Source of the DNA: Chloropicon primus
Taxonomy: Eukaryota
Reading direction: 5' to 3'
DNA length: 64,000 nucleotides
Assembly (NCBI GenBank): GCA_023205875.1
Contig: CP060764.1
Span: 372,001-436,000 of the forward strand
Shown here piece by piece: positions 36,068-52,814 of the stretch; positions within the stretch are counted from its first letter, which is position 1, and every line of letters begins with the position of its first letter. The notes beneath the pieces are model-generated. The model did not search any database. It was given only the letters and a program-made list of their open reading frames with translations, and was not told the origin of the DNA. The position numbers were made by a program, and so were the translations under genes.

Positions 36068-39000
36068 TCAAAGACACAGAGTGGTTTGGGCCTTCCTTGA
36101 GGAGTACGATCTTTGACTGTACAAAGACGAGCTGGATGGACTTCTCATCACGTCTTGCAGCTCATCAAACTTCGCGAAGTCTATGGTGGAACGCCCGTCC
36201 CTGAGCACCATCATATCGGCGAACCTCTTTGAGAGCTCGAGCTGGGAGGCGCTGTTATATGAGCACTTTGCACAAACCTCAGCCTGGTAGACGGGGTCGA
36301 GGGCCGTCACGATGACCTGGAAAGCCATGACGTTGTCTGGATTTTTCATGTCTTCGGGGCTCAGGCTGAACAAAGGAGACTCCTCGTCGATCCTGTGAGT
36401 AATGTTGTAGAATCCGCTGATCGTTCCAGGCAACGCCACGGGCAGCTCGACGATTTTGACAAAGTCCTCGCCCTCGGAAGTCTCCTGCTCCTTCAGCACA
36501 AACAATCGCAGCGACGGATTGTAAAGGGTGTGGCAGCGGAGGTTACCAACGCGAAGGCAGAGGTGCCGGACCCCATCTCGCGTGAACAGGCAGATCTTGT
36601 CCGAGAAAACCACATCTGCTTTCGGAGACTGGAACTTGGCCAGCACCGCAGCGAAGACGAAGACGTTGATCAGGATGCCCGACAACTGCGAGAGCGTCGC
36701 AATCAAGTACCCAACGTTCGATGTGGGGAAGACCGTTCCATACCCCATAGAGATGACATTGGCTGCGGCAAACCTGAAAGCCATGATGACCTGCGGCGGA
36801 GGATCCCCGTTGTAGAAGATCTCCGCCTCCTCGGTGTCATTGTCGAAACGCAGGGGGATGCTGATCAGGGCGACCACGACGATTGGAAGACCGTACATGA
36901 TCATTGCCAAAAGGCAGCAGAACCACCAAGACTTCTCCAGAATGAGAAAGTACAGGGTCGAGGGCGTAAACCTCAGCAGTCTTGAAGACGTGGTTGCCGG
37001 CCTTGAAGTTGAAATCGAGCCCGCCCTTTTAATCAGCCCCCGAACCTTTTCTTTCTTCCCTCTCTGGGATTGGAGCGCGGAAAGGATTGGAGGAATGCCT
37101 TTCGCTATTTCCCAGTTTGATCCCTTGGCCAATCCATCGTCATCGACGCTTGACCCGCATGGAAGTTCCGCGCCATTCTGGTGGTTACGAGAGCTCTTCT
37201 CTCTCGCCTTGGCCAGAGCCTCTTGAATGACCGGCAAAAGCTCCGGGGACAAACCATAAATTTTCTGGCAGACCGTCCGCAGGATGTACACGTCCAGGTT
37301 GCCGCCTGGTGTGACCTCTCTGCCCAGCCCGAACACGGCTTCCCAGGACCCCCTCCCGGAGAACCTTTCGAGGTACGCAAACGTCAGAGGCGCGATCTCA
37401 GCGAAGGGTGACCCCAACTTTGCAAGGCCGCTCTCCGTCAGGTTGTAGACTGTCCACAGTTTCGAGACGAGGCGGCAATCCAACAGACCCGGTTCGTCGC
37501 CGCACAAGTAATCGCTCAGCGACAGGGCCTCCTCCCAACGACCAAGACCCTCCCTCACAATCCCTTGCAAGGCAGCCACCCCTTTGCTGACATCACCCTC
37601 GTCCGGATCAACGCCGTGCTTTTGCAGGAGGAAGGAGCGCATCCCGTTCGGCTTGGCAGGAGCCATGAGCAAGGCGAATGCCGCCATCTGCACGTCCAAC
37701 CCGTCTTTGCTCGCGCCTGCCATGGTTGGCGGCCTCGCACTTGCCAGGGAGCCCACGAGGGCTGACTTGACGACGAGCGTGTCGATTATGCTGTCGGTGC
37801 CGTCCAGCCACTCCTGGGACTGTGCCAGCCTGAGGCCCGGGGTCTCCATCTTTGCATTCACCTTTTTGTGCCACTCGGGCTTGTCCGCCAGGTCTGCACG
37901 GTAGCACCGGTACGCCTCGCCCGCTTCGGACAGGAGCAGGGCCACCGAAGCCGAGAAGGAGCACTCGGGCAGCATCGCAGATCGAGGGAACTCGGGTCCG
38001 TCCAGGACCGCGTCGCCGTAGCTCGCCCTGCCGCACCCCACAAGAAGCTCAATCTCCTCGCTCCTCGTGGGCGGCGCCTCGCTGTTGCACATCTCCGGCA
38101 GAGCGGGACGACTCATGGCGCGGACCACGTCTTCGTCTTCACCACGCCTGCTCCTGGCCAGAGCCTCTTGAATGACCGGCAAAAGCTCCGGGGACAAACC
38201 ATAAATTTTCTGGCAGACCGTCCGCAGGATGTACACGTCCAGGTTGCCGCCTGGTGTGACCTCTCTGCCCAGCCCGAACACGGCTTCCCAGGACCCCCTC
38301 CCGGAGAACCTTTCGAGGTACGCAAACGTCAGAGGCGCGATCTCAGCGAAGGGTGACCCCAACTTTGCAAGGCCGCTCTCCGTCAGGTTGTAGACTGTCC
38401 ACAGTTTCGAGACGAGGCGGCAATCCAACAGACCCGGTTCGTCGCCGCACAAGTAATCGCTCAGCGACAGGGCCTCCTCCCAACGACCAAGACCCTCCCT
38501 CACAATCCCTTGCAAGGCAGCCACCCCTTTGCTGACATCACCCTCGTCCGGATCAACGCCGTGCTTTTGCAGGAGGAAGGAGCGCATCCCGTTCGGCTTG
38601 GCAGGAGCCATGAGCAAGGCGAATGCCGCCATCTGCACGTCCAACCCGTCTTTGCTCGCGCCTGCCATGGTTGGCGGCCTCGCACTTGCCAGGGAGCCCA
38701 CGAGGGCTGACTTGACGACGAGCGTGTCGATTATGTTGTCGGTGCCGTCCAGCCACTCCTGGGACTGTGCCAGCCTGAGGCCCGGGGTCTCCATCTTTGC
38801 ATTCACCTTTTTGTGCCACTCGGGCTTGTCCGCCAGGTCTGCACGGTAGCACCGGTACGCCTCGCCCGCTTCGGACAGGAGCAGGGCCACCGAAGCCGAG
38901 AAGGAGCACTCGGGCAGCATCGCAGATCGAGGGAACTCGGGTCCGTCCAGGACCGCGTCGCCGTAGCTCGCCCTGCCGCACCCCACGAGAAGCTCAATCT

Positions 39001-40006
39001 CCTCGCTCCTCGTGGGCGGCGCCTCGCTGTTGCACATCTCCGGCAGAGCGGGACGACTCATGGCGCGGACCACGTCTTCGTCTTCACCACGCCTGCTCCT
39101 GGCCAGAGCCTCTTGAATGACCGGCAAAAGCTCCGGGGACAAACCATAAATTTTCTGGCAGACCGTCCGCAGGATGTACACGTCCAGGTTGCCGCCTGGT
39201 GTGACCTCTCTGCCCAGTCCGAACACGGCTTCCCAGGACCCCCTCCCGGAGAACCTTTCGAGGTACGCAAACGTCAGAGGCGCGATCTCAGCGAAGGGTG
39301 ACCCCAACTTTGCAAGGCCGCTCTCCGTCAGGTTGTAGACTGTCCACAGTTTCGAGACAAGGCGGCAATCCAACAGACCCGGTTCGTCGCCGCACAAGTA
39401 ATCGCTCAGCGACAGGGCCTCCTCCCAACGACCAAGACCCTCCCTCACAATCCCTTGCAAGGCAGCCACCCCTTTGCTGACATCACCCTCGTCCGGATCA
39501 ACGCCGTGCGTTTGCAGGAGGAAGGAGCGCATCCCGTTCGGCTTGGCAGGAGCCAAGGACAAGGCGAATGCCGCCATCAACACGTCCAACCCGTCTTTGC
39601 TCGCGCCTGCCATGGTTGGCGGCCTCGCACTTGCCAGGGAGCCCACGAGGGCTGACTTGACGACGAGCGTGTCGATTATGTTGTCGGTGCCGTCCAGCCA
39701 CTCCTGGGACTGTGCCAGCCTGAGGCCCGGGGTCTCCATCTTTGCATTCACCTTTTTGTGCCACTCGGGCTTGTCCACCAGGTCTGCACGGTAGCACCGG
39801 TACGCCTCGCCCGCTTCGGACAGGAGCAGGGCCACCGAAGCCGAGAAGCAGCACTCGTGCAGCATCGCAGATCGAGGGAACTCGGGTCCGTCCAGGACCG
39901 CGTCGCCGTAGCTCGCCCTGCCGCACCCCACGAGAAGCTCAATCTCCTCGCTCCTCGTGGGCGGCGCCTCGCTGTTGCACATCTCCGGCAGAGCGGGACG
40001 ACTCAT
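36068..40006 (-). CDS. Fusion of three DHAR/CLIC-like GST-fold units with an inward-rectifier K+ channel (Kir)
   Basis: Single uninterrupted ORF, first ATG at 40006. Each unit contains EC[CS]FS...DKPEW...ETPGL and YLCGDEPGLLDCRLVSKLW. The C-terminus has TM1, ISMGYG, TM2 AKFQSPK, VFSDK...RDG...CLRVGNLR and THRIDEESPL. Confidence 0.85.
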   Translation of the reverse strand: MSRPALPEMCNSEAPPTRSEEIELLVGCGRASYGDAVLDGPEFPRSAMLHECCFSASVALLLSEAGEAYRCYRADLVDKPEWHKKVNAKMETPGLRLAQSQEWLDGTDNIIDTLVVKSALVGSLASARPPTMAGASKDGLDVLMAAFALSLAPAKPNGMRSFLLQTHGVDPDEGDVSKGVAALQGIVREGLGRWEEALSLSDYLCGDEPGLLDCRLVSKLWTVYNLTESGLAKLGSPFAEIAPLTFAYLERFSGRGSWEAVFGLGREVTPGGNLDVYILRTVCQKIYGLSPELLPVIQEALARSRRGEDEDVVRAMSRPALPEMCNSEAPPTRSEEIELLVGCGRASYGDAVLDGPEFPRSAMLPECSFSASVALLLSEAGEAYRCYRADLADKPEWHKKVNAKMETPGLRLAQSQEWLDGTDNIIDTLVVKSALVGSLASARPPTMAGASKDGLDVQMAAFALLMAPAKPNGMRSFLLQKHGVDPDEGDVSKGVAALQGIVREGLGRWEEALSLSDYLCGDEPGLLDCRLVSKLWTVYNLTESGLAKLGSPFAEIAPLTFAYLERFSGRGSWEAVFGLGREVTPGGNLDVYILRTVCQKIYGLSPELLPVIQEALARSRRGEDEDVVRAMSRPALPEMCNSEAPPTRSEEIELLVGCGRASYGDAVLDGPEFPRSAMLPECSFSASVALLLSEAGEAYRCYRADLADKPEWHKKVNAKMETPGLRLAQSQEWLDGTDSIIDTLVVKSALVGSLASARPPTMAGASKDGLDVQMAAFALLMAPAKPNGMRSFLLQKHGVDPDEGDVSKGVAALQGIVREGLGRWEEALSLSDYLCGDEPGLLDCRLVSKLWTVYNLTESGLAKLGSPFAEIAPLTFAYLERFSGRGSWEAVFGLGREVTPGGNLDVYILRTVCQKIYGLSPELLPVIQEALAKAREKSSRNHQNGAELPCGSSVDDDGLAKGSNWEIAKGIPPILSALQSQRGKKEKVRGLIKRAGSISTSRPATTSSRLLRFTPSTLYFLILEKSWWFCCLLAMIMYGLPIVVVALISIPLRFDNDTEEAEIFYNGDPPPQVIMAFRFAAANVISMGYGTVFPTSNVGYLIATLSQLSGILINVFVFAAVLAKFQSPKADVVFSDKICLFTRDGVRHLCLRVGNLRCHTLYNPSLRLFVLKEQETSEGEDFVKIVELPVALPGTISGFYNITHRIDEESPLFSLSPEDMKNPDNVMAFQVIVTALDPVYQAEVCAKCSYNSASQLELSKRFADMMVLRDGRSTIDFAKFDELQDVMRSPSSSSLYSQRSYSSRKAQTTLCL

Positions 40007-40031
40007 GGCGCGGACCACGTCTTCGTCTTCA
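37210..40031. repeat. Tandem triplication of a 945-bp coding unit
   Basis: Near-identical sequence at a 945-bp period (e.g. GGCCAGAGCC at 37211, 38156, 39101) with only a handful of substitutions. Confidence 0.97.
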
Positions 40032-40227
40032 ACCAACGCCAACTCTCTCCTCTCCTCTTCCTCTTCCTCTCTCTCTCTCTCTCCTCTGGCTGAAATCGAG
40101 AGAGAGAGAATAACGGGCGAGCAGGCGTTACGGCGATTGGGTTGTTGAGAGGATAAGAATAGCATCGCGAGACGTTCGCAAGTACGCGTGTACCAGGCGT
40201 CGCCAACTGCGAGAGAAGGCCTAGACG

Positions 40228-44509: not shown

Positions 44510-46469
44510 TTATGATCCAAAGAGGTCTTTCAGGTTGTCTATGGATACCTGGCCACCGGGTGCGGGCTTAGTGGGCTCACCTGCGGGCACCCCCTCCTCG
44601 CGGGGAGGGGGATGCTCCTCGGCGGCCTCGGCACCGGGGATGAAAAATTTTCTGTTGTGCTCCGGGGACGGTGGGCGGGCAGGGGCAGCGGCGGCTTCCA
44701 CCTCCTTCGAACCGCTCGACGCCCCCTCTGCCACTGCCTTGGACCTCCCTTTCTTCTTGGCACGCCTGCCGAGAAATCCCTTTTTGATTCCGGGGCCCAA
44801 GGAAGTCGGCTGAGCCTCCAGCACGCTCTTCCTTTCGGTGGCGAGCCGCTGCGGTTTGTGAGTAAGGTGGCCTCCCCTTTCTCCAGCAGAGGCTGGCTTG
44901 GTTGCCTGCCCACTCACGAGGCCCAGGGCGCCCTTGAGGATTTCAAAGGTAGCCAGCTGGCTGTCAGTCATGGTGGACTCCACGGTAGGAGGATTTTCGA
45001 AGACTTTGATGAGCTTGTTGATCTCCTTCTCCCCAACTTGGCTCGCCTCGCGCGTGTAAAAGCAGTGCATGGGCGTCTTCTTCCCCTGCAAAGTCTTTCG
45101 AACCAGAGCAAAGCTGCGGCCAGAGGGATCCCCGGGGAGCTTGGAGATTCCAATGCTCGCACGGGTCCTGTCATGAGGCATTCGCAAGAGGAGCTCCTCA
45201 AGAGGATCTCCTTCCTTTCTCCAGGTGAGCGTGCAACTTGAATCGGGCTGGAGCCAAAACTCTAGCCGGCCAACATTTCGGCTCGGCGAAAGCTTCATCG
45301 TTCCCTGGAGATTGCCTGCGCTCTTGCCAAAAGATTTCAAGAGCTTGCCCACGCGTACTCGGCAGACGGGCGTCAAAAAGTGCGTGAAAATTTTGGTTAC
45401 GTCCTGGAGGGGCAGTGCGGTCTTTAGGCCTGGGGAGCTGAGCGAAAAGTCAAGCATGCCGCGCTCAATGTTATCGCCGAGCTTTGCTTGGCGCCCACAG
45501 TCCCCGTGGGGCCTCAAGCCGGCTGCAGCAATCTGATTGTCGTCGCCCTCTGGGAGGACCACCGGAGGTTCCGGGCTGCTCCGCCGCGACTTGTCGATGG
45601 GAAAAGAGGCGTAATAACTGCTGAGAGTGGTTCTGATGGAGGTCATCCTCTTCGCGTGCGTCTCTACCTTTGACGCTTCCAGCGCTTCCAGCAGAATTCC
45701 TACAAGCAGGCGAAAGGTCAGATCACCCCAATCCAACCAACGCAATTCGTCGCACAAACTCACCTGGTGGCTTGCGACCGTACGCCTCCTCCCACTTGCT
45801 CGCAAAGCCAAAGAGGAGATTCTGCGAGAGCAGGCTGTTTCTAACCAAAGCTCCAAAAAAGTCAGCTGAAGGACACCTCGCGTCCGCGTCCCATGTGGGA
45901 GGAATCACGAGGAGCGTACTACACTTCTCACAAGCAAAGGGGTACAAGCAGCTTCCTTCGTCCTCGCCCTTGCATCGGCAGACGTCGTGAAGGTCTGACA
46001 GCGAGCTGATCGTCATGCTCTCTCCAAAGGCGATGATGGAGACCTCCCCACAGGCCTTTCTCAGCTCCTTGGCGGAATCCCAAAATGTCGACGCTCGCTG
46101 ACTGCTGTCGCCGATGTCGCCGCAGAGGAACAAGTACACTCGGCTCTTCATCCTGTTCATCTTCATGACCAGGAGGAGCCTCTTTATCATCCTGTCCAGG
46201 AGGTTCGAGTCCTTCCCACCTCTCTGGGGACTGAAGCTCTCGTCCAGTCCCGCCAGCTGGCTCTTCCAGTCCCTCGCAGGCGTGATGAGCCACTCCTCCC
46301 CCGCTTCCAAGCCCACCACGTCGGGCTCCAAGTCCAACGCTATCAGCCGGGCCGCTTGAACCTGAGCGCACCACCTCGTCATGCTGCGCGCCTGGCAGTA
46401 CACGTCCTCGTTCAAAGCATACGGAGACGCATCGAAAAGGAAGTACGCCGCCAAAGCGTTCTCAGACAT
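44510..46469 (-). CDS. Rpn10-like vWA domain fused to an Rpn13-like Pru domain
   Basis: Exons 46469-45764 and 45699-44510. A 64-nt GTGAGT...CTGAC...TAG intron joins the two track ORFs in frame. Domain calls from motif resemblance. Confidence 0.65.
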
Positions 46470-47138
46470 CGCCGCTGCTTCCTCCTCCTTCTCCACTGCA
46501 AACAAACTGCGACCTCGTCCTCCGCTGCTTCCTCCTCTTCTCCACTGCAAACAAACTGCGGTCGCAGTGCAACAAACTGCGGAACTCCTCTTCTCTCTCT
46601 CTCTCTCCACCTCAACCTCAACGCCACGACGTCCTCGTCCTCCGCTCCTCCATCCAAGTGAGTGAAAGTAACGCTCACTCCCTCCTCCCGTCCTCCGCTC
46701 TCGCTCGCTCTCTTGTGTTCTGCTGCTGCTGCTTCGCACTCTCTCCATCGAGGCGCGCGACGAAGGAGGGAAGGGAGGGGAATTGGAGGAGGAAGGGAGG
46801 TCAGGGGGTGGAGAAGGGGCCAAGGAGGGGTCAAGGATCGGATTCCTCAGGTTCTTCTCTTTCGTATGACACCTCACACGAAAGGAATGGTGAACGGAAC
46901 AAGATTTTGAGTGGTTTGGCGTTTGCTTCGAGAGGAGGGGAGAGGTTTGGACGAGGTTAGGACGAGGTTAGGGCCGCGCGGCGCCGGGGTCACGGGAGTT
47001 ATTGGGTGCTGAGGGGAAGTATCGTTCCTCTGGCTTTCGAACGCGCCGGACCTTGAAGGAATCGGCGCCCTGGCGAGGAACTGAGAGGACTGAAGCACTT
47101 GGTTTGAGTTGGTTTTTTGACGGAAGTGAAAGGCTACG

Positions 47139-51881: not shown

Positions 51882-52814
51882 ATGGAGGGGAGCGGGAGCG
51901 GGAGCGACGACGGGACTGAGCCGTACTGCGACTTTTTCGTGCTGGACACGAGCTCGTGGTCGAGCATCAGGGACCAGGACTTGAGGATTGGTGGCGTCAC
52001 GGAGTTCGACACCCGGTTGGTGGGCCAGGTCATGGCGATGAAGCTCCTGTGCTGCTGGGGGATGCCCTCCCAGGTTGGCGTGGCCCACATGGGAAACTCC
52101 AGCGCGTCGAGGGGGCTGGAGCTGACGCCGAAGTGGAGGACGGGGGAGGCCGCGGGGACCTCCGCCCGGGAGGTCGGAGACCTCGGCTGCTACGAGGCGA
52201 ACTCCGACCCGATCTTCTTCGACGACTTTGGGGAGCTGGTTCCGCAGGACCAGAACCCGCAGAGGGTGGTGCAGGCCCTGAACCTTGGCCTGGCCAGCCT
52301 GAAGACGGCTTCCAACCGGGGCAAGAGGATCACGGTGTTCCTCTGCAGCCCGATCACGGGTCTGAGAGACCTGGAAGCGCAACTGATTCCGCTGCGGCAG
52401 GAGCTGGACGGGAACGGCATTGAGGTCGAGTTCATCCTCCACCCAAAGGTGTACAGCAAGGCGTACGACAACGTCATCGGGGGACCGGAAGGCTCGCAGC
52501 GGTCCTCGCGCGACGAGGGGGTGAGGGAGGGGATGGCGGCCGTCAGCATCAGCGACATCAGGAGCGAGGACGAAGACCTGGACACTCTGGCCAACATCTT
52601 TTCGATCGACGTGATGAACAACATTCCGTACAAGAGCTTCTTGGAGACCCTCGCGATGTACAAGGATGTGTATTTTGACGGCATCACGGGACTGCGGGCT
52701 TTGTCCTCGAGGTGGAGCGCGTGCTGGCCCGAGTCCGATGCTCAGGAGACCATGCCTCGCATCCTTTTCGTGTTTCAGTGGTCCCCCACGAGCTCGGAAA
52801 GGGGCGACGACTAG
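51882..52814 (+). CDS. Divergent Rpn10-like vWA-domain protein lacking UIMs
   Basis: FFVLDTS, TRLVGQVMAMKLLC, QVGVAHMG, ALNLGLASLK...KRITVFLCSPI and LRQELDGNGIEVEFI follow the Rpn10 vWA motifs in order. Confidence 0.62.
   Translation: MEGSGSGSDDGTEPYCDFFVLDTSSWSSIRDQDLRIGGVTEFDTRLVGQVMAMKLLCCWGMPSQVGVAHMGNSSASRGLELTPKWRTGEAAGTSAREVGDLGCYEANSDPIFFDDFGELVPQDQNPQRVVQALNLGLASLKTASNRGKRITVFLCSPITGLRDLEAQLIPLRQELDGNGIEVEFILHPKVYSKAYDNVIGGPEGSQRSSRDEGVREGMAAVSISDIRSEDEDLDTLANIFSIDVMNNIPYKSFLETLAMYKDVYFDGITGLRALSSRWSACWPESDAQETMPRILFVFQWSPTSSERGDD

Follow-up and report, generated by a model that had tools for sequence, protein, structure and literature searches.

In the proteasomes described so far, to our knowledge, Rpn10 and Rpn13 occur as distinct subunits, and the use and regulation of their docking sites is an active question. 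Rpn10 (PSMD4/S5a) has UIMs in addition to its vWA domain; Rpn13 (ADRM1) has its Pru domain at the N-terminus and a DEUBAD, which recruits UCH37. TFIIH p44/Ssl1 and the Integrator subunits INTS14/INTS6, also eukaryotic vWA proteins, belong to the same broad clade. The Pru domain is reported to bind ubiquitin via loops (PMC11546751), and that of hRpn13 to bind peptides in general, including partners outside the proteasome (PMC12218921). Here we describe a gene with which the green alga Chloropicon primus encodes, in a single chain, a vWA domain of the Rpn10 type and a Pru domain of the Rpn13 type.

The window analysed is a stretch of 64,000 nucleotides of contig CP060764.1, to which all positions refer; every feature of the fusion gene given below lies on its minus strand. 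The gene, annotated as coding for a hypothetical protein, occupies positions 46469-44510, from the ATG at 46469-46467 to the TAA stop at 44512-44510, and consists of two exons and one intron. Coding exon 1 (45764..46469, 706 nt) encodes residues 1-235 and the first base of codon 236, and coding exon 2 (44510..45699, 1190 nt) encodes residues 236-631 and the stop, giving a coding length of 1896 nt or 631 codons plus stop. The 64-nt intron between them (45700..45763) has the form GTGAGT...TTGTAG with GT..AG ends. It is bridged by contigs of two runs from two studies (X1 of study P1 and X2 of study P2), which join 45698 to 45763, leave out exactly 64 nt, whose ends on the plus strand are CT..AC, and are otherwise identical to the window. 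A public 631-aa protein (P0003, source name 'hypothetical protein HOP50_11g63340 [Chloropicon primus]') shows 100% identity to the product and reads across the exon junction as ...GRKPPGILLEAL..., the same junction as in our gene model. The fusion gene is thus expressed and spliced, the library type of the runs behind the spliced contigs (four runs match the stretch, none of them recorded as RNA) being presumed to be RNA. The original prediction, made from the letters of the DNA, had proposed a canonical 64-nt intron joining two open reading frames and had named the splice junction as a point to check; contigs of both studies and P0003 agree with it, and every motif that it quoted is found in the translations of exons 1 and 2. 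Identity of the gene with A3770_11p63340 was considered and rejected, since strong homologues of the latter are present in Micromonas and Chlamydomonas.

Single-sequence searches were of little use with either half: Pfam returned 0 families at E<=10, and phmmer against the PDB gave chance matches only (fuconate dehydratase, ribosomal S1). A profile built from the family, searched against the 177,635 sequences of the PDB at E<=10, had eight matches, seven of them to Rpn10/PSMD4 (E 6.6e-6 to 0.014) and the eighth to ADRM1. The Rpn10-type vWA domain spans residues ~5-232 (45774..46457). In the alignment to the family HMM, a DXS motif and the T-R..AQ motif that follows it align with Rpn10; D13-A-S15 (46425..46433) is the counterpart of Rpn10 D11-x-S13, with D at position 13 in five of six members (E in one) and S or T at position 15 in all six. 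The role of D11 in the Rpn10 motif is treated in PMC11546751. Superposition of the AlphaFold model with VIA-align (model 2-216 on Rpn10 chain 1-192) gave Z scores of 10.2-12.6 to Rpn10 over 149-156 aligned residues with 18-25% identity, versus 8-17% identity and Z scores of 9.3-10.4 or less for other vWA domains, among them CMG2/ANTXR2 (Z 10.0-10.4). The vWA fold is also shared with TFIIH p44 and INTS14, which are neighbours in ESM Atlas features at 0.88-0.90; however, their Z scores are lower (9.3-9.9), identity is 10-15%, neither p44/Ssl1 nor INTS14/INTS6 is found by the family profile in the PDB at E<=10, and the zinc fingers and beta-barrels that are their partner domains are absent from the fusion. 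The best vWA matches in Foldseek are again Rpn10, and ESM Atlas gives TM 0.60-0.66 to VWA clusters.

The N-terminal half therefore resembles Rpn10 over the whole domain, keeping the DXS and T-R..AQ motifs, the hydrophobic core strands and a '...VIPP' strand. Its divergence puts it beyond the reach of Pfam VWA_2: the VWA_2/VWA curated threshold was not reached, exon 1 having 0 matches at E<=10 and 13 relatives none at E<=1. No UIM was found by Pfam at E<=10 or by a regex pattern search of the protein. Unlike Rpn10, the fusion has a cysteine-rich insert within the vWA domain (C164, C166, C174, C180 and C183; 45921..45980), and beyond the vWA domain come a helix, a linker and the Pru domain. Four of the cysteines (C166, C174, C180 and C183) are kept in five of the six members covering the region, and the cluster is possibly a zinc site.

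The C-terminal half contains an Rpn13-type Pru (PH-like) domain at residues 344-473 (44987..45376). A profile of this domain has ADRM1 Pru as the best eight of its ten PDB matches (E 7.8e-4 to 0.017), although the ADRM1 match covers the second half of the Pru domain only. Pfam PF04683 (Rpn13_ADRM1_Pru) was matched by one of eight members with an E of 0.039, short of the curated threshold, and not by the Pru-like domain of the window protein itself; PF16550, the DEUBAD family, had no match in Pfam at E<=10. The structural comparisons cover the whole domain. With the AlphaFold model as query, Foldseek ranks 1-10 were all Rpn13 Pru (E 3.7e-6 to 2.9e-4), with a TMt of 0.63-0.78 for nine Pru-domain chains; for entry 2kr0, which is full-length ADRM1, it was 0.23. 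VIA-align gave Z 13.2-13.9 and rmsd 2.0-2.5 for seven Pru-domain chains (107-112 of 109-114 residues) and Z 12.3 for full-length 2kr0; in the best case, model residues 344-472 superimpose on chain residues 20-131 with Z 13.9, rmsd 2.0 and 109 of 111 residues aligned. There is no non-Rpn13 PH-like fold among the VIA top 50. ESM Atlas's own model also matches ADRM1 clusters; its feature search with residues 236-500 yielded no usable match. By structure, a Streptophyta cluster named 'RNI-like superfamily protein' was flagged as well, so that a related Pru-like module may exist in land plants. A Ku/Integrator-like architecture of a vWA domain with a beta-barrel, as the Atlas feature neighbours had hinted, was dropped: the C-terminal half is a PH-like sandwich with Rpn13 as the top match.

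The AlphaFold (AF2) model used in these comparisons was built from family sequences alone (10 sequences) and has a pTM of 0.42; a model made without an alignment had a mean pLDDT of 39.6 and was set aside. In the Pru half, residues 348-451 form seven strands and residues 455-470 a helix; pLDDT values by ten-residue blocks are 69-89 except for the loop block 361-370 at 46. Confidence is low in the tail (pLDDT 30-42), and with this pTM the model does not indicate that the tail docks or that the domains keep a set orientation to each other. The fusion shares with Rpn13 the seven-strand PH-like sandwich and its C-terminal helix (2.0 Å, 109 of 111 residues). Three sequence features align as well: the P-S-G-R loop, an aromatic residue at W108 and an N-P-P where the helix ends. 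The beta1-beta2 hairpin is presumably longer in the fusion than in ADRM1, judging by ADRM1 numbering. In contrast to Rpn13, the fusion has its Pru domain in an internal position and no DEUBAD. At the domain level, sequence profiles and structural models thus support an Rpn10-type vWA domain joined to an Rpn13-type Pru domain. This is what had originally been read from motifs in the two halves, together with the apparent lack of a UIM or DEUBAD, with which the Pfam and regex searches agree. Had other vWA or PH families been closer to the halves, that reading would have been mistaken; we found the opposite, since the proteasomal receptors score higher in both the profile and the structure searches.

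The residues of the Pru domain that contact partners allow a closer comparison. S90, R92, P89, W108 and M31 lie on the peptide/Rpn2 face according to PMC5494190, PMC12218921 and PMC11546751. The loop D-P-S-G-R-S-F (residues 426-432; 45110..45130), aligned by HMM to C88-P-S-G-R-V-Y of ADRM1, is conserved in 6-7 of 7 members: the equivalent of S90 is S in all seven, and those of R92 and P89 are R and P in six each. The equivalent of W108 is Y or W in all seven. For the first half of the domain, the register (M31, P40, L56 and F76) was set from the motif pairs of the original prediction, the VIA ranges and ADRM1 numbering. By this provisional register, the M31 equivalent is L or F in 8/8 members and the P40 equivalent P in 3/8, while on the side of ubiquitin the L56 equivalent is S, K or T in 8/8 and the F76 equivalent hydrophobic in 6/7. 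Several positions that contact Rpn2 have changed, V93 being replaced by S in 7/7 members and V95, R104 and E111 varying. Among the other ubiquitin contacts, the F98 equivalent is R or K in 6/7 and that of D79 varies. In Arabidopsis, an F-to-R change at the residue equivalent to F98 is reported to leave ubiquitin binding defective (PMC11546751). As mapped, the ubiquitin-contact residues, L56 and F98 among them, appear to be replaced, and a candidate pocket for a peptide such as the Rpn2 tail appears largely retained. Because these contacts are replaced and a UIM is lacking, we predict that the fusion protein does not recognise ubiquitin by the canonical mode.

Outside the two domains, several elements are conserved in the family. 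A long helix follows the vWA domain (residues 237-266, 45608..45697; 236-266 in the AF2 model with pLDDT ~78-84), with conserved L242, R253, L261, S262 and Y265. The C-G-R-Q motif at 303-306 (45488..45499) lies in an otherwise disordered linker and has C303 and G304 in 8/9 members each and Q306 in 9/9. A basic cluster at 541-556 (44738..44785; 9 K/R in the 21 residues 536-556), with comparable clusters in P0042 and P0004, is possibly a nuclear localisation signal. Further on, in the C-terminal tail, which is predicted by AF2 to be disordered, a proline-rich segment leads into F-x-hydrophobic-P and an acidic stretch (577-597, 44615..44677); this motif aligns in P0003, P0033 and P0037 and partly in P0004. 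The Rpn2 tail uses prolines together with F948/Y950 (PMC5494190), and by analogy the proline/aromatic/acidic motif may resemble it, which we offer as an idea. The protein ends in V-S-I-D-N-L-x-x-L-F (620-631, 44513..44548), found in all five members reaching the C-terminus (P0003, P0004, P0033, P0037 and P0042). An HbYX-type proteasome-gate motif at this end was rejected, the aromatic residue standing at a variable distance from the terminus.

A search of 1.84 billion proteins found 14 family representatives at E<=1e-3, the window protein included, and all come from Chloropicon or environmental records. Four full-length members have both domains on one chain. In three relatives (P0004, 763 aa; P0033, 630 aa; P0037, 710 aa) a single open reading frame or transcript spans the two halves, and the fusion is therefore independent of the splice in the window. 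Pairwise identity among the full-length members is 19-36% for the vWA and 27-43% for the Pru domain, and hence both halves are conserved. In one relative lineage, the halves are called as separate proteins (P0006 of 327 aa, and P0010/P0042 of ~303-318 aa). Homologue searches with exon 2, with alignment A2 and with P0003 residues 1-480 had the protein itself and P0004 among the matches listed. A conserved-pattern search for related loci in metagenome contigs gave 35 pattern matches, 0 of which were confirmed, and full-text searches of the literature brought up, among the entries listed, no description of an Rpn10-Rpn13 fusion. The alternative first proposed for the gene, an uncharacterised lineage-restricted Pru-like family, is true as a description.

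Whether canonical receptors exist elsewhere in the genome had been raised as a check from the outset, and chromosome 5 of C. primus carries annotated genes for both: RPN13 as A3770_05p39780 (K06691) and RPN10 as A3770_05p40180 (K03029) (PMC6731263, Supplementary Data 2). The fusion gene is therefore an extra, fused paralogue, and its orthology to RPN10 is unlikely because canonical RPN10 is annotated elsewhere. A second, divergent Rpn10-like gene of 310 aa, with a vWA domain only, lies 5.4 kb from the fusion gene (51882..52814, plus strand). Among 892 window ORFs searched with hmmsearch, it matches the family profile with E 1.1e-6 (profile positions 13-160), and hhalign gives a probability of 78.6%; all three of its PDB matches are Rpn10, at a non-significant E of 0.21-0.35, and pairwise BLASTP with exon 1 was not significant. 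In contigs of X1 and X2 it is spanned without any joint. Like the fusion, it has a vWA domain that is Rpn10-like and divergent, but it has no Pru half. Matched by position only, it is probably A3770_11p63160, which carries a 'secondary' RPN10 KO in the table of PMC6731263.

How far these data speak for a particular role depends on the weight given to other readings. That two separate genes were wrongly joined is suggested by the split calls of the halves in one relative lineage, but the gene callers behind these take no account of introns. With the intron bridged by contigs of both studies and the halves kept together in a single frame or transcript of three relatives, an artefact of the gene model is in effect refuted, and we give it almost no credence. 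A generic resemblance, in which plain vWA and PH-like domains have no special kinship to Rpn10 and Rpn13, would fit the empty single-sequence searches, the missed Pfam cut-offs and the Z scores of other vWA domains, which are merely ~2 units lower. It is nevertheless very improbable, given that for each half the sole family with E<0.02 among the PDB sequences is its own proteasomal receptor, that identity is higher to Rpn10 than to the other vWA domains and that the VIA top 50 contain no other PH-like fold.

The remaining alternatives accept the ancestry of the domains and differ in what they would do. The protein could be an extra receptor or shuttle, with re-shaped Pru loops binding ubiquitin or a UBL and the vWA domain delivering cargo to the proteasome. 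The Pru fold is retained across the whole domain, the F76 equivalent is mostly hydrophobic and the loops by which a Pru binds ubiquitin can diverge (PMC11546751). However, the changes at L56, F98 and D79 and the failure of Pfam and regex searches to find a UIM make such a receptor unlikely. Less easily set aside, and nearly as probable as the reading preferred below, is a non-proteasomal scaffold, in which domains of receptor paralogues were co-opted for protein-protein interaction in another, perhaps nuclear, complex. The confinement of the family to Chloropicon and environmental records would suit this, as would the loss of mapped ubiquitin contacts, the presence of canonical RPN10 and RPN13 in the genome, the absence from Rpn10/Rpn13 of the cysteine cluster, CGRQ, basic cluster and C-terminal motif, and the non-proteasomal partners of hRpn13 Pru (PMC12218921). 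Against it, each half leads independently to its own proteasomal receptor and not to another vWA or PH family, and the pocket formed by S90, R92 and W108 is the best-conserved part of the Pru half.

We tentatively prefer, at somewhat less than even chances, a peptide-docking adaptor acting at, or competing for, the 19S proteasome cap, as opposed to a canonical ubiquitin receptor. On this reading, the gene would derive from receptor paralogues that were duplicated and fused. Its vWA half would sit at the places where Rpn10-type vWA domains engage partners, and the Pru half would hold a proline-rich/aromatic peptide in the retained S90/R92/W108-type pocket, candidate ligands being the C-terminal tail of Rpn2 and the tail motif of the fusion protein itself. 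Through the conserved tail motifs, another partner would be recruited or the fusion protein regulated. What counts against an adaptor is that both halves miss the Pfam curated cut-offs, that the match to Pru by sequence is limited to the second half of that domain, that several Rpn2-contact positions have changed, that the register of the first half is provisional and that the AF2 model, built on 10 sequences, does not show the tail docked; in addition, in a lineage-restricted family of versatile interaction domains a non-proteasomal role is quite possible. A more specific form of the adaptor would be a 'double-docking' lineage-specific proteasome cofactor, having both docking domains and no canonical ubiquitin-reading elements. 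It would occupy or bridge the Rpn10 and Rpn2-tail (Rpn13) sites and re-programme substrate choice, its own tail mimicking that of Rpn2 and switching the Pru pocket. This we regard as a speculative and rather improbable extension.

Chloropicon primus is a small marine green alga, and the family of the fusion protein is one of abundant marine picoalgae whose cell biology has been little studied. The combination of profile and structure methods gives a 'hypothetical protein' devoid of Pfam matches a definite ancestry. A natural chain with paralogues of both docking domains, and with the mapped ubiquitin contacts replaced, would be a ready-made probe of both sites. The fusion could thereby reveal how the occupancy of proteasome receptors is tuned, or a ubiquitin-independent route of delivery.

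The fusion gene, as read from the sequence, lies on the minus strand with its ATG start codon at 46469-46467 and its TAA stop codon at 44512-44510, and is interrupted by a 64 nt intron (GTGAGT...TTGTAG, 45763-45700, minus strand). With 706 nt in exon 1 and 1190 nt in exon 2, the coding sequence has 631 codons plus the stop, and the vWA and Pru motifs quoted in the original prediction are all present in the exon translations. The sole match to exon 2 in a database search, 100% identical, is P0003, the public 631 aa protein of this gene ('hypothetical protein HOP50_11g63340 [Chloropicon primus]'), whose sequence is continuous across the proposed exon 1/exon 2 junction. The junction itself is borne out by contigs from two public sequencing runs of different studies (X1 and X2), which link 45698 to 45763 with the 64 nt absent and, apart from this gap, are identical to the window at the fusion gene. 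The library type of X1 and X2 is only guessed as RNA, and because an intron-less, otherwise identical copy is most simply spliced mRNA, we read the gene as transcribed. Retention of the intron would lead to a stop after 11 more codons and thus to a product containing the vWA half only. The exon 1 frame is open 5′ of the start codon as far as 46967 and contains another in-frame ATG, at 46748 (minus strand). This stretch (46470-46967, minus strand) is of low complexity with direct repeats, a 24 nt unit occurring twice at 100% identity (46488-46511 and 46537-46560), and the run contigs extend over it to 46700 at least. It is probably the 5′ UTR.

When searched as single sequences, neither half matched a Pfam model at E≤10, and neither gave a meaningful sequence match in the PDB. 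The kinship emerges from profile searches against 177,635 distinct PDB sequences. Of the eight matches at E≤10 to the profile of an alignment of 10 family sequences (A2), seven (E 6.6e-6 to 0.014) are vWA domains of yeast, Arabidopsis and human Rpn10/PSMD4, and one is ADRM1 (E 0.67). In this alignment the family start D-x-S/T-x-Y...D...T-R..AQ pairs with the D11-N-S-E-Y...D...T-R..AQ start of Rpn10, and the core strands of the vWA domain are paired as well. The profile of the C-terminal domain alone (A4, eight sequences) gave 10 matches, the best eight all being the ADRM1 Pru domain (E 7.8e-4 to 0.017) over chain residues of about 77-137; D-P-S-G-R-S-F aligns with C-P-S-G-R-V-Y of ADRM1, C-F-Y with F-F-W and N-P-P with N-P-P. 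The last two, an affibody (E 1.3) and PurS (E 1.5), are noise. The Pfam Pru model PF04683 was matched by one of eight members, at an E of 0.039 that is weaker than the family's cut-off.

An AlphaFold2 model, computed from the 10 family sequences without templates, averages pLDDT 63, and most of its folded parts reach 74-89. It comprises an alpha/beta domain (residues 7-230), a long helix (236-266), a disordered linker (271-328), a seven-strand sandwich between a leading helix and a C-terminal one (333-470), two more helices up to residue 493 and, at low confidence, a disordered tail from residue 497 onward. Foldseek places Rpn13 Pru at ranks 1-10 in the PDB (E 3.7e-6 to 2.9e-4, identity 17-22%). 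The nine Pru-domain chains have a TMt of 0.63-0.78, and entry 2kr0, which is full-length ADRM1, has 0.23. Among PH-like folds a PTB domain (E 5.2e-4, TMt 0.41) comes next, together with Ran-binding domains (E 1.7e-3, TMt 0.51). Rpn10 leads the vWA matches, the spinach, Arabidopsis, fission yeast, budding yeast and human proteins scoring E 2e-3 to 1.2e-2 and TMt 0.50-0.59, with TFIIH p44 and Ku ranking behind. VIA-align, run on the Foldseek candidates, superposed model residues 344-473 on Rpn13 chain residues 20-132, seven Pru-domain chains reaching Z 13.2-13.9 at an rmsd of 2.0-2.5 Å over 107-112 of 109-114 residues, and full-length 2kr0 Z 12.3; no other PH-like fold appeared within its top 50. 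Residues 2-216 were superposed on Rpn10 chain residues 1-192 (Z 10.2-12.6, 149-156 residues, 18-25% identity), while other vWA domains stayed at or below Z 10.4 (CMG2/ANTXR2), with TFIIH p44 and INTS14 at 9.3-9.9, and showed 8-17% identity. Both assignments of the original prediction, an N-half following Rpn10/PSMD4 and a C-half following the Rpn13/ADRM1 Pru domain, are therefore upheld by profile and by structure. The single-sequence models of the ESM Atlas provide an independent echo, residues 1-240 resembling VWA_2/Ssl1/VWA clusters (TM 0.60-0.66) and residues 236-500 matching ADRM1 clusters bearing PF04683. For residues 278-495 of P0003 (window about 44921-45574, minus strand) the Atlas ranks a Streptophyta cluster, 'RNI-like superfamily protein', above the ADRM1 clusters (996 members, 708 aa, TM by query 0.54, 181 residues aligned). 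The aligned part has no Pfam family; on this low-confidence Atlas model, an unannotated Pru-like module may exist in land plants.

Searched exhaustively with phmmer (E≤1e-3), a set of 1.84 billion representative proteins yielded 14 family proteins, the query included. Four are full-length, with both halves aligned in one stretch (P0003, 631 aa; P0004, 763 aa; P0033, 630 aa; P0037, 710 aa), and the others are fragments of either half. Chloropicon mariensis and Chloropicon sp. CCMP2111 are represented, the remainder being marine-type metagenome or EukProt records, and none of the 13 relatives scanned gave a relevant Pfam match. The four full-length members share 19-36% identity in the vWA domain, 27-43% in the Pru domain and 15-27% in the tail, so both domains have been maintained. 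One relative lineage has separate calls for the vWA half (P0006, 327 aa) and the Pru half (P0010/P0042, 303-318 aa); P0006 stops just past the CGRQ motif and the two halves sit on contigs of matching lengths, which suggests a linker intron at a position unlike that in C. primus. A more distant EukProt relative (P0015/P0016, E 7e-4) has a Pru-like domain preceded by a vWA-end-like stretch and, before that, a tandem repeat rich in proline and glycine. The family may extend beyond Chloropicon.

In human Rpn13, W108 is buried by the hRpn2 prolines, F948 lies near M31 and V93, and hRpn2 Y950 lies near L33/T36/V95/R104 (PMC5494190). P40, S90 and W108 form the peptide pocket, and V38, C88, R92, W108 and E111 span the Rpn2 surface (PMC12218921). 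The critical ubiquitin contacts are S55, L56, I75, F76, D79 and F98, and in Arabidopsis the F88R change makes ubiquitin binding defective (PMC11546751). On the peptide/Rpn2 face the family keeps S90 (7/7), R92 (6/7) and P89 (6/7), has Y or W for W108 (7/7), L or F for M31 (8/8) and S for V93 (7/7), and varies at V95, R104 and E111. On the ubiquitin face L56 is replaced by S, K or T (8/8) and F98 by R or K (6/7), D79 is variable and F76 is hydrophobic in 6/7. The HMM alignment supplies the register for the domain's second half; that of the first half (M31, P40, L56, F76) is less certain, built on the originally proposed motif pairs, the VIA-align ranges and what we take to be the ADRM1 numbering. 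In the vWA domain, the equivalent of Rpn10 D11 is D in 5/6 members and E in 1/6, and that of S13 is S or T in 6/6; in Rpn10, vWA stability and assembly require D11 of the DXS motif (PMC11546751).

Unlike Rpn10 and Rpn13, the family has a cysteine cluster inside the vWA domain (C166, C174, C180, C183; 5/6 members), which may bind zinc, a conserved helix (residues 236-266) and a near-invariant C-G-R-Q motif within the disordered linker. The fusion protein also differs from both receptors by a basic cluster (residues about 541-556), by a tail motif of prolines, F-x-hydrophobic-P and acidic residues, whose composition recalls the Pru-bound Rpn2 tail, and by the C-terminal motif V-S-I-D-N-L-x-x-L-F, found in 5/5 members reaching the end.

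Canonical RPN10 and RPN13 do exist elsewhere in the genome. Rows retrieved by term search from the genome paper of C. primus (Supplementary Data 2) list A3770_05p39780 (entered as 'proteasomal complex ubiquitin receptor', K06691 RPN13) and A3770_05p40180 ('subunit Rpn10 of proteasome', K03029), both with homologues in many green algae (PMC6731263). The fusion gene is therefore an additional paralogue and not the alga's Rpn10 or Rpn13. By position it should be A3770_11p63110 or 63120, because the order of neighbours in the rows retrieved (ABC transporter, KCNJ-like, pyruvate decarboxylase, two hypotheticals, ALG1 ... MUS81) agrees with the Pfam content of the window. Both loci are entered there as 'hypothetical protein', without homologues in the 13 further genomes of the green lineage compared there, those of 12 green algae and of Klebsormidium, a streptophyte (PMC6731263). 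A 1365 aa open frame at 36068-40165 (minus strand) combines several glutathione S-transferase N-/C-domains with a C-terminal IRK_C, the inward-rectifier potassium-channel cytoplasmic domain (E 6.7e-13), an odd architecture; in the table the corresponding locus is called hypothetical and assigned KO KCNJ2 (PMC6731263). Among all 892 open frames of the window, the third match of the family profile is an intron-less 310 aa ORF with an Rpn10-like vWA domain only (51882-52814, plus strand), 5.4 kb away from the fusion gene. The match is to the vWA part of the profile (E 1.1e-6; hhalign probability 78.6%), the PDB matches of the ORF are all Rpn10 at a non-significant E of 0.21-0.35, and the X1 and X2 contigs span it without joints. 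It is probably A3770_11p63160, which carries a secondary RPN10 KO in the same table (PMC6731263). The presence of two vWA genes within 6 kb, both divergent and Rpn10-like, hints that the vWA half arose by local duplication.

How the protein is used can be argued in several ways. With a public protein and two sets of intron-less contigs, the fusion gene is real and transcribed, and we give scarcely any credence to a gene-model artefact. The N- and C-halves are diverged paralogues of, respectively, the Rpn10 vWA and Rpn13 Pru domains; set beside the profile and structural matches, chance resemblance is very improbable. Our leading reading, held tentatively, is that the protein works at the 19S cap, or competes for it: the largely retained Pru peptide pocket and the vWA surface would be used, and ubiquitin would not be read in the canonical way. 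The main rival, also a realistic possibility, is that both modules were co-opted into a complex unrelated to the proteasome. A diverged yet real ubiquitin or UBL receptor, set beside the replaced L56 and F98, appears unlikely.

In the portions of text returned by a full-text literature search, neither a vWA-Pru fusion nor comparable 'Pru-like' or 'Rpn13-like' families were described. The domains themselves are known; what we rate as new is the architecture and the altered functional sites, carried by a small family, so far of Chloropicon and metagenome/EukProt records only, that exists beside canonical RPN10 and RPN13.
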